The position numbers and the translations under genes are program-made. From Escherichia coli 042 (GTDB lineage Bacteria > Pseudomonadota > Gammaproteobacteria > Enterobacterales > Enterobacteriaceae): a stretch of 64,000 bases of DNA. Location: assembly GCF_000027125.1 (NCBI RefSeq), contig NC_017626.1; one strand, 5' to 3'. A model generated the notes under the pieces. The model was not told the DNA's origin, did no database searches, and saw nothing but the letters and a program-made list of their open reading frames with translations. Of this stretch, positions 13,985-64,000 are shown piece after piece. The first letter of the stretch is position 1. Each line of letters opens with the position of its first letter.

Positions 13985-15142
13985 TTAACGGGCTGGTGCT
14001 TTATCGTTCTCACGCTTAACAACCGGTTTACCAGAGAACAAAAACTTCAGTAACGGGATGCGTAAATGAATTTCATACAGAATTATCGCAATCCCTACTA
14101 CGAATATCAGGCCACAGAGAAAACCAAGCCAGTTGGATGTGATGTGCGGTGTAATGTACGCGCCGAAAAACAGAGTTAACGGGTGGTGAACCAGATAGAT
14201 AAACAGCGATGCATTAACAAAGTAAGTCACCCGCGCTGACTGGAAGTTAAGCAAACGGTGGCCGAAGGAGAAGACCACATTCACCATCCACAGACCGAGG
14301 ACCATGGTGATCACCGACTCGGTTTCGTACATCCAGGCATCGCCACTGCCATAGCGCTGGTTGAGTAAGTAAGCGACAAATGCCAATGCTGCTGCAAGGG
14401 TACAGCCACGAGACGGCGTGGTAAACAAGGTTTTAAGATGAGGGAAAATGAAAGCCAGTGCGCCGAGGATAAAGAACGGCAAATAAAATAGCGTTTGCAT
14501 GACAATAAAATTGAACATGCCGTTACTCAGAATGGGCGGATACACAATAAAAATCGTTCTTCTTATTACCGCATAGCCGATGCCGAGGCACAAAAAAATC
14601 ACCGATAGTTTTACCATCGAGAATTTTTTATTCGTTTTATCAGAATTTTCTAAATTATTTCTGATGCGTTTAAATATCCATACGCACAGCGTCGTCATGA
14701 CTACTAACACCAGTAAAAACCACAGGTGTGATATTAATTCCCAGGCCAACGTATTATATTTGTCATACAATGACAGGCCAGGCCAACTTTCCGCTTTCCC
14801 TTTGACGTATTGCAGCATAATAAATTGCGGTAATGTCAGTAGGGGGATGGCTGTTAACATCGGGATACCTACACGTTCGACACGTACTTTCCACCATTTT
14901 TTCAAGGGATAGCGTAAAAAAAGCATGTAGGAAAAGTACCCGGATATAACGAAAAATACCTGCATGCGGAACGAGTGGATGAAGTCATTAAAAAGGGTCA
15001 GCCACAATGACGGTTCGGCGCTATTCACATGCCATGTATGGCTCGAATAGATTAAAGAAATATGAAAAGGGATCCCTAACAACATCAGCCAGGCGCGGAT
15101 GGAGTCGAGGAAATATTCACGTTGCGCGGGTACTGGATTCAT
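13985..15142 (-). CDS. opgC: OPG (glucan) succinyltransferase OpgC
   Basis: 385-aa polytopic membrane acyltransferase-3 family protein. Confidence 0.88.
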
Positions 15143-15424
15143 ATATGGTTAACTAATCTCGGATTTTTCGTCTTATCCCTGTCGGGTTATGCCTTTAGGC
15201 TTGTTGCCATAGCGACACCGACCTGACCGCGCCAGGCGCAGGCTTCAAGGTTTTTATGCATAGCATCATCGCTACCACTAACCAGAATGGAAGCGTCTGT
15301 AAGACGGTTGATAAATAAATTTGCTGGCAAACCCTACACGAAGTCGATGCTTCTGTCTTTAGGAGAAGCACGGAAAGTGAAAACGGTTGCAATCAGGTGC
15401 TTAATCCATGAGCCAGCGTGCTGA

Positions 15425-27156: not shown

Positions 27157-27445
27157 CATGGCCCCCTAATTCGTGTTACTAGACAACGTTATTCGAGGTT
27201 CAATGCGTTTTTATCTGAAGCAACTTCAGTATACCAATAAGTAAGGGTATTCACCGAATTTTTAAAGGGGGGAACAGATAAATTTCTGCTTTTAAGATTT
27301 ATATGAACAATAAAACAGCATGTCATTCATATTTTTTTAGCATATTGTGCAATTATTTTGAGGAAGTGTAGAAATTTTGTACTCAAAATTTGTAAGTAAA
27401 ATAAAAAAGCCGGGGCGACCCGGCAAAAACAAAAATCACTGCATA

Positions 27446-27691
27446 TTATTCGCTGACAAACCAGTCATCGGCGCTTTCCCACGTTTCCTGGAGAATTTCG
27501 CTAATGCGCTGTTTATCTTCTTTTGTTGCGCCAATAACCGATAAATTATTCGCTGCGGCATAACGTACCGATACGTGGCCTTCATTATCAGGAAACGCAT
27601 ACTGAATACGGCGGGAAAGTTCGCCAGCCAGGGCGTCAATAGCCCCAGCTGGCAATGGAGAAGTTTTCGCTATGGTGACTTCAATTCGCAT
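27446..27691 (-). CDS. dinI: DNA damage-inducible protein DinI
   Basis: 81 aa starting MRIEVTIAK; the 125-aa ORF-track extension is upstream read-through. Confidence 0.9.
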   Translation of the reverse strand: MRIEVTIAKTSPLPAGAIDALAGELSRRIQYAFPDNEGHVSVRYAAANNLSVIGATKEDKQRISEILQETWESADDWFVSE

Positions 27692-27710
27692 AATAGCCCC
27701 CTGTTGAATA

Positions 27711-27730
27711 TACTGGTTATTTATACAGGT
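27711..27730. promoter_or_regulatory. LexA box (SOS operator) of dinI
   Basis: TACTGGTTATTTATACAGGT, matching the CTG-N10-CAG LexA consensus about 20 bp upstream of the dinI start. Confidence 0.75.
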
Positions 27731-27764
27731 AAAATAACCTAATGACAACAGGAAGCTAGGATTT

Positions 27765-28811
27765 TTATTGTTTAACGGACCAGCGTACCGTTTCCCCGGC
27801 GAGGAATGGCACCAGTGTGTCATCAGTCAATGCGATGCTTTCAGCAACCTGTTGCTCTTCGCGGACCAGTTCGATGAATGTGTCGTTGACCGGCAAGCCA
27901 TAGAACTGCGGGCCGTTTACAGAACAGAATGCTTCAAAGTGCTGCAGAGCATTCATCTCTTCAAAGACGGTAGCGTAACTGCCCAGCGCGGTGGGGGCGT
28001 TGAAGCAGCCCGCGCAGCCGCAGCTGCTCTCTTTGCGATGACGTGCATGCGGCGCAGAATCCGTACCGAGGAATACGCGATTAAAACCGCTGGCGACCAG
28101 TTCACGCAGTGCCTGTTGGTGAATATTGCGTTTGAGGATGGGTAGACAATACAGGTGTGGACGCACGCCACCAACCAGCATATGGTTGCGGTTAAACATC
28201 AGATGCTGCGGAGTGATGGTGGCAGCCAGCCGTTCATTTCCGTTACGGACATAGTCGGCAGCATCTTTGGTGGTGATGTGCTCAAAAACGACTTTCAGCG
28301 CAGTCAGGCGCTGGCGCAGCGGTTCCATCACGCTTTCAATAAAGCGCGCTTCACGATCAAAAATGTCGATATCTGCATGTGTCACTTCACCATGCACCAG
28401 TAACGGCATACCGATTTTTTCCATGCGCTCAAGTACCGGCATGATTGCGTCAACTGACGTCACGCCGTGACTGGAGTTAGTGGTTGCGTTTGCCGGGTAA
28501 AGTTTGGCAGCGGTGAACACGCCTTCGTTAAATCCACGCTCAAGCTCATTAGGGTCTAGTGAATCTGTCAAATAACAGGTCATCAGCGGGCTGAAATCGT
28601 GCCCGGCAGGTACGGCGTCAAGAATACGCTGGCGATAAGCCACGGCAGCCTCAACGGTGGTCACGGGCGGAGCCAGATTGGGCATTACGATAGCCCGTCC
28701 ATAAATTTCGCTGGTATACGGCACGACAGTTTTTAACATGTCGCCATCGCGGAGGTGAAGGTGCCAGTCGTCTGGGCGGCGGATCTTTAATACCTGGGAT
28801 GGTGCAGTCAT
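27765..28811 (-). CDS. pyrC: Dihydroorotase PyrC
   Basis: 348 aa, HxH zinc motif ([10 protein letters not shown]). Confidence 0.93.
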
Positions 28812-63556: not shown

Positions 63557-64000
63557 GTATATCGTCATTGAGGGGCTGGAAGGCGCAGGCAAAACTACCG
63601 CGCGTAATGTGGTGGTTGAGACGCTCGAGCAACTGGGTATCCGCGACATGGTTTTCACTCGGGAACCTGGCGGTACGCAACTTGCCGAAAAGTTAAGAAG
63701 CCTGGTGCTGGATATCAAATCGGTAGGCGATGAAGTCATTACCGATAAAGCCGAAGTTCTGATGTTTTATGCCGCGCGCGTTCAACTGGTAGAAACGGTC
63801 ATCAAACCTGCGCTGGCTAACGGCACCTGGGTGATTGGCGATCGCCACGATCTCTCCACTCAGGCGTATCAGGGCGGCGGACGTGGTATTGACCAACATA
63901 TGCTGGCAACATTGCGTGATGCTGTTCTCGGGGATTTTCGCCCCGACTTAACGCTCTATCTCGATGTTACCCCGGAAGTTGGCTTAAAACGTGCGCGTGC
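63546..64000 (+). CDS. tmk: Thymidylate kinase, 3'-truncated by window edge
   Basis: P-loop GLEGAGKTT; start overlaps the mltG stop by 11 bp. Confidence 0.9.

Follow-up and report, generated by a model that had tools for sequence, protein, structure and literature searches.

In the standard SOS mechanism, a LexA dimer occludes the promoter of a damage-inducible gene until RecA filaments assembled on single-stranded DNA bring about LexA self-cleavage and thereby derepression (PMC6590174). The gene dinI has been listed among those with a known SOS box (PMC6590174), a compilation that was built on Fernandez De Henestrosa et al. 2000 and Courcelle et al. 2001. Its regulation has been documented in several enteric bacteria. 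In Escherichia coli K-12, dinI was induced 49-fold by AZT, with a 39-fold dependence on cleavable LexA as judged by comparison with lexA3 (PMC11228462), and tiling arrays placed it among the most prominent UV-induced genes (PMC3009722). Treatment of Salmonella with nalidixic acid led to a 22.8-fold rise in dinI (PMC8072944). In Klebsiella pneumoniae, mitomycin C induced the dinI mRNA and the LexA ChIP signal at the promoter fell (PMC10907235); the orthologous LexA box in this species overlaps the mapped dinI start site (PMC10907235).

We examined the dinI locus in a 64-kb stretch of the E. coli chromosome, referred to as the window throughout. The minus-strand genes, in the order of transcription and as taken from the list of open reading frames, are yceB, pyrC, dinI, bssS, and solA. 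The dinI coding sequence occupies 27446-27691 (minus strand; 81 amino acids plus stop), with the RefSeq start codon ATG at 27691 and the stop codon at 27448-27446. Its upstream neighbour, pyrC (dihydroorotase), was found by the open reading frame list and by annotation at 27765-28811 on the same strand, with its TAA stop codon at 27767-27765. RefSeq records "dinI: DNA damage-inducible protein I" adjoining "pyrC: dihydroorotase" at matching coordinates in both E. coli 118UI and K-12. The identity of the product was clear from a Pfam match to the DinI family (PF06183) that spans all 63 profile positions (1-63) and, at 102.1 bits, lies above the curated cut-off of 24.2, and from identity at 81 of 81 residues with the solved structures PDB 1GHH and 7YWA.

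The 451-bp stretch at 27380-27830 was found in 5,425 of 5,426 complete E. coli genomes, and at least 80% of it was present in 5,413 of them. Downstream of dinI, the terminator scan identified an intrinsic terminator at 27424-27409 on the minus strand, consisting of a hairpin with a T-run (GCCGGGTCGCCCCGGC then TTTTTTATTT), which leaves a 3' UTR of approximately 40 nt from the stop at 27446. A search of 27300-27900 against Rfam returned a single RyhB-like match, whose 19 bits fall short of the gathering score of 55. This match lies at 27401-27446 on the minus strand, in the dinI 3' UTR and terminator, and was judged to be due to chance (E = 0.65).

The sequence-only reading of this locus had placed an SOS operator upstream of dinI at 27703-27730, on the strength of a match to the LexA motif CTG-N10-CAG. 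We found this motif as described, with CTG at 27713-27715 and CAG at 27726-27728, so that it spans 27713-27728 of the plus-strand sequence TACTGGTTATTTATACAGGT. The interval itself was drawn too wide: the operator is the 20-bp imperfect palindrome at 27711-27730 (minus-strand ACCTGTATAAATAACCAGTA), which lies 19 bp before the annotated start codon of dinI at 27691, and the eight bases on the dinI side (27703-27710) fall outside it.

One alternative is that an AT-rich palindrome has arisen here by chance within a promoter region and has no LexA function. Two observations lend it some colour. The bare CTG-N10-CAG motif occurs 27 times in the window against an expectation of 13.7 ± 3.7 from dinucleotide-preserving shuffles (only 1 of 100 shuffles reached 27), and is therefore too unspecific to carry a LexA claim. 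In addition, the dinI site lies five mismatches away from the perfect palindrome TACTG(TA)5CAGTA. A consensus search with TACTGTATATATATACAGTA, permitting three mismatches or fewer, gave no match, because this tolerance misses a site with five mismatches. Apart from the dinI site, the matches to the bare motif are all poor as LexA boxes; the roughly twofold excess of the motif over the shuffles in the window as a whole perhaps reflects codon usage.

Since consensus matching was too strict, a weight matrix was used instead. This was a symmetric log-odds matrix derived from 17 published E. coli LexA boxes (PMC3009722 Table 4), with dinI left out, and it was used to scan the whole 64-kb window together with 200 first-order Markov simulations of 64 kb. 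The dinI box scored 21.0 bits on this dinI-excluded matrix and was the best site in the window by 10 bits, while the simulations peaked at 20.0 bits, such that none of the 200 reached the dinI value. A scan of this kind had been named in advance as a check on the operator, and the site passed it. The 17 boxes of the matrix, which are its own training set, scored 13.8-28.2 bits, with polB the weakest at 13.8, and the dinI site thus combines a palindrome carrying CTG and CAG 10 bp apart with a score inside the range of published boxes. The runner-up sites, at 15131-15150 (11.0 bits) and 63706-63725 (10.9 bits), both scored below the weakest published box, and no second SOS box was found in the 64-kb window. 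On the matrix the dinI box ranked approximately 11th of 18, and a heterology index of 4.8 puts it in the stronger half (PMC11228462). It is a mid-strength box and not a top one.

The chance reading fares no better against evidence from outside the window. The 20-mer is the same as that of K-12 MG1655 and as the published dinI LexA box (PMC3009722 Table 4), so that the site is one which has been studied experimentally, and LexA-dependent induction of dinI is documented (PMC8072944, PMC11228462, PMC10907235). It was also noted that all 80 species loci keep the box, next to a spacer that has been randomised, as described below. With a full-site score 10 bits above every other position and no simulation to match it, we consider a functionless palindrome to be effectively refuted and assign it only a negligible probability.

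We conclude that 27711-27730 is, almost beyond doubt, the LexA operator (SOS box) of the chromosomal E. coli dinI gene. The original assignment of an SOS operator upstream of dinI is thus borne out by identity with the published site, matrix score, conservation, and LexA-dependent induction in the literature, and the analysis turned up no evidence to the contrary. LexA occupancy of the operator and its induction by damage are supported by published work on K-12, whose promoter is identical, and on orthologues. The 101-bp interval bounded by the end of pyrC and the dinI start departs from K-12 MG1655 at a single base, 27759, and this base lies outside every element described here. A CCTA/TAGG pairing between pyrC and dinI, picked out by eye, was discarded as it is not conserved and K-12 differs there. 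The pyrC protein of the window also appears to differ from that of K-12 at a few residues. The dinI operator is an already known, textbook element, and the value of the present analysis for annotation lies in setting the dinI start at 27691, rejecting a 125-amino-acid open reading frame, and marking the sole SOS operator of the 64-kb window.

The position of the operator relative to the promoter was then considered from hexamers read from the minus-strand sequence. A predicted -35 element, TTGTCA (27748-27743; five of six positions to consensus), is followed by a 17-bp spacer (27742-27726) and a predicted -10 element, TATAAA (27725-27720; also five of six), which falls within the left half of the LexA box. 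An alternative -10 register, ATAAAT at 27724-27719, would form an extended -10 together with the TG at 27727-26. The LexA box covers the predicted -10 and the likely start site (~27713). It does not reach the predicted -35, which sits 12 bp upstream of it. The earlier statement that the operator overlaps the -10/-35 region is accordingly right only for the predicted -10. A Shine-Dalgarno sequence, AGGGGG, is located at 27702-27697, 5 nt before the dinI ATG.

A generic promoter scan did not call the minus-strand dinI promoter, because TATAAA lacks the final T which that scan requires; it returned two plus-strand matches against 1.4 expected, a yield no better than chance. A mapped start site for E. 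coli dinI was not found in the literature searched. The E. coli -10, -35, and start-site positions given here are predictions, drawn from hexamers read by eye, from the conservation footprint, and from the Klebsiella orthologue.

From this arrangement, regulation of the locus would follow the established SOS scheme. In an undamaged cell, a LexA dimer would sit on 27711-27730 and bar RNA polymerase from initiating at the sigma-70 promoter (TTGTCA, 17 bp, TATAAA), since both the predicted -10 hexamer and the probable start site fall within the box. Upon DNA damage, RecA filaments on single-stranded DNA would trigger LexA self-cleavage, and the vacated operator would permit strong dinI transcription. 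The 81-amino-acid DinI would then bind and modulate the RecA filaments.

We assessed the conservation of these elements in 80 loci, taken from one genome per species, whose DinI proteins showed 73-99% identity. The set comprised approximately 20 genera of Enterobacteriaceae, including Escherichia, Citrobacter, Salmonella, Enterobacter, Lelliottia, Kosakonia, Kluyvera, Buttiauxella, Atlantibacter, Cedecea, and others. All 80 carried a box upstream of dinI that scored 19.4 bits or more. For 76 of them, the best matrix match within 150 bp scored 19.4-29.3 bits and ended 18-21 bp before the ATG, and in 65 of the 80 the distance was exactly 19 bp, as in the window. In the other four loci the box is intact, with 22-25 bits, but an insertion in the 5' leader has moved it further from the ATG.

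These four displaced boxes belong to two genera. In two Trabulsiella loci (L034 and L035; ~1140-1200), an insertion of approximately 42 bp has left the box 60-62 bp from the dinI ATG, with the original G-rich, Shine-Dalgarno-like run still beside the box and a new GGA-containing stretch before the ATG. In Buttiauxella gaviniae and B. brennerae (L063 and L081; ~1060-1185), an element of approximately 126 bp (gaatcccgatgagcttacataggtaagtgattcgggtgagtg...) lies between the box (1036-1055) and the dinI Shine-Dalgarno. This element resembles an ERIC repeat, to judge by the ERIC primer sequences. A third Buttiauxella (L054) is without the insertion and has the usual 19-bp spacing.

A column-by-column footprint across 76 distinct species sequences resolved the conserved positions further. 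The sequence TGTTG at 27750-27746, in the -35 region, was 92-100% conserved, and the spacer at 27742-27732 was essentially random across genera. Within the box, CTGTATAAATA and CAGTA were 91-100% conserved; positions 27728-27718 and 27715-27711 were nearly invariant, and the centre at 27717-27716 was variable, as the LexA motif allows. The -10 hexamer was 93-100% conserved (27721 at 93%, the others invariant). The Shine-Dalgarno region CAGGGGGC at 27703-27696 was conserved at 88-100% across genera.

A further alternative concerns the reading frame of dinI. An open reading frame of 125 amino acids is present as listed at 27446-27823 on the minus strand, and if it encoded a real, N-terminally extended DinI, the putative operator would lie within coding sequence. 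The frame is indeed open and begins with an ATG in the window strain, K-12, and E. albertii. Against this, the Pfam DinI domain begins only at residue 58 of the 125, and residues 45-125 are identical at 81 of 81 positions to the solved 81-amino-acid protein. The RefSeq start is the ATG at 27691, and the conserved Shine-Dalgarno stands 5 nt ahead of that codon. In 76 of the 80 species loci the frame meets a stop 4-42 codons ahead of the dinI ATG, and it remains open for 45 codons in Escherichia loci only. Among the 80 species loci the upstream ATG was seen in E. albertii alone, and it is absent from two loci labelled E. coli and from E. whittamii.

The origin of the upstream ATG also speaks against its use. 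It is formed by the pyrC codons GAT-GAC, in a 59-nt overlap with that gene, and the predicted transcription start lies downstream of it. The footprint gave no coding-like conservation over the extension. The 125-amino-acid frame is the spurious product of a mechanical 5' extension, which crosses the promoter and enters the end of pyrC, and it does not code for protein, given the annotated and solved 81-amino-acid product, the conserved Shine-Dalgarno, the upstream stops, and an ATG that lies inside pyrC. We find an extended DinI exceedingly improbable. The sequence-only reading had dismissed the extension too, with the argument that it reads through the operator; that conclusion was right, while the argument for it is suggestive and not conclusive.

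We also surveyed dinI paralogues carried by prophages, which share 49-56% identity. In 58 of 62 distinct prophage upstream regions, a box of 21.5-29.5 bits was located 14-22 bp from the ATG. Four viral contigs (L107, L108, L109, and L158; ~560-600) carry DinI-like genes without a LexA box within 100 bp. In these, the apparent start precedes the tblastn match by a few bases and follows directly on another open reading frame, with an overlapping or abutting ATG, and the four are probably inner genes of operons. It was also noted that a group of prophage loci (L084, L090, L095-L100, L110, and L127; ~510-535) possesses a strong intrinsic terminator, for example gccccgataggggcttttctttt, directly upstream of the -35 element TTGCAA. 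A terminator placed before a LexA-controlled prophage promoter is a different way to insulate dinI from upstream transcription.

The interval between pyrC and dinI is short, with only 16 bp from the pyrC stop to the dinI -35. The terminator scan found no terminator between the two genes, and the sole minus-strand terminator-like site in 27250-27950 follows dinI. Because of this, transcripts of pyrC may run into dinI. We considered an addition to the operator, not a replacement for it, in which a C-rich arm 5' of the -35 would pair with the dinI Shine-Dalgarno in pyrC read-through RNA and block its translation. This hypothetical anti-Shine-Dalgarno arm, the upstream half of a conserved inverted repeat, lies at 27746-27758 on the minus strand (UAGCUUCCUGUUG in E. 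coli, with the consensus core GCCCCCUGU), where it abuts and overlaps the -35. As the predicted start site lies downstream of the arm, the arm would be carried only by RNA initiated externally. DinI would then be made only from transcripts of the LexA-controlled promoter, which lack the arm, and box-bound LexA might serve as a roadblock as well.

Several folding results are in keeping with such an arm. A 13-bp stem is predicted between UAGCUUCCUGUUG (27758-27746) and CAACAGGGGGCUA in the Shine-Dalgarno region (27706-27694), and the read-through RNA folds at -29.4 kcal/mol (z = -3.7; 1 of 200 shuffles as good). The cross-genus consensus of the arm, GCCCCCTGT / GCCCCCUGT, is the exact complement of ACAGGGGGC, the dinI Shine-Dalgarno, and the nine core pairs are formed in 75-97% of 75 distinct sequences. 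Partition-function folding of each species gave a median of approximately 1.0 for pairing of the Shine-Dalgarno G-run with sequence 5' of -40 in the read-through RNA, with 57 of 76 species above 0.8, compared to a mean of 0.41 in shuffled-upstream controls and a total pairing of approximately 0.5 in a leader of native length (start at -22). The prophage copies of dinI are without the C-run, and the one group noted above has a true terminator there instead. This substitution is in line with a need to shield dinI from transcription arriving from upstream, although it is no test of such a need.

Other observations weigh against the pairing. Its Shine-Dalgarno side is invariant, and so there is no compensatory covariation; the substitutions in the arm are approximately 61% C-to-T, which is no more than transition bias. 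RNAalifold, run on a 77-sequence alignment, did not return the stem, and the C-run is absent from six loci of the Citrobacter freundii group. Half-pairing is predicted for the native leader too. In the literature searched, a pyrC-dinI read-through RNA is undocumented, and Northern blots in Klebsiella report a dinI mRNA of approximately 350 nt. The idea was also formed post hoc. On balance we regard the fold-back arm as a tentative and somewhat doubtful proposal.

If such an arm did operate, dinI would possess a second, RNA-level safeguard, and DinI synthesis would strictly need LexA-controlled initiation. A tightly repressed modulator of RecA would in this way be shielded, with no terminator in between, from transcription of a biosynthetic gene that lies upstream and is expressed constitutively. 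It would offer a chromosomal example of a mechanism known mainly from insertion sequences, and its importance would be modest. The conserved C-rich arm is the only thing near the operator that is possibly new.

The closest relative of the locus is dinI of K-12 itself, where the 20-mer of the LexA box, the promoter, the Shine-Dalgarno, the start codon, and the pyrC-dinI-bssS order are all identical to the window. There is no difference of substance between the two, and the window simply represents another E. coli strain. Salmonella enterica dinI and the dinI of its Gifsy prophages also have boxes 19 bp from the ATG, as in the window, and are damage-induced (PMC8072944); the prophage set surveyed here shows an architecture like theirs. 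The Salmonella and prophage boxes are nearer to the consensus, at 26-29 bits compared to 21 in the window on the same matrix. Unlike the window, the prophage copies stand in other contexts and have no C-rich arm upstream of the -35.

The dinI-DinR locus of K. pneumoniae differs at the 3' end of the transcript. The 3' part of its mRNA is processed to an Hfq-dependent sRNA, DinR, which represses ftsZ and has been described as Klebsiella-specific (PMC10907235). Set against that locus, dinI in the window has only its short 3' UTR of about 40 nt. For the arm alone, the nearest likeness is to IS10 and IS50, in which Davis, Simons and Kleckner in 1985 reportedly found fold-back inhibition of transposase translation in read-through transcripts. 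There too, sequence upstream of the native promoter complements the ribosome-binding site, and only external transcripts sequester it. Unlike those elements, the gene in the window is a chromosomal SOS gene behind a biosynthetic gene, and the resemblance is one of proposed mechanism and not of family membership.
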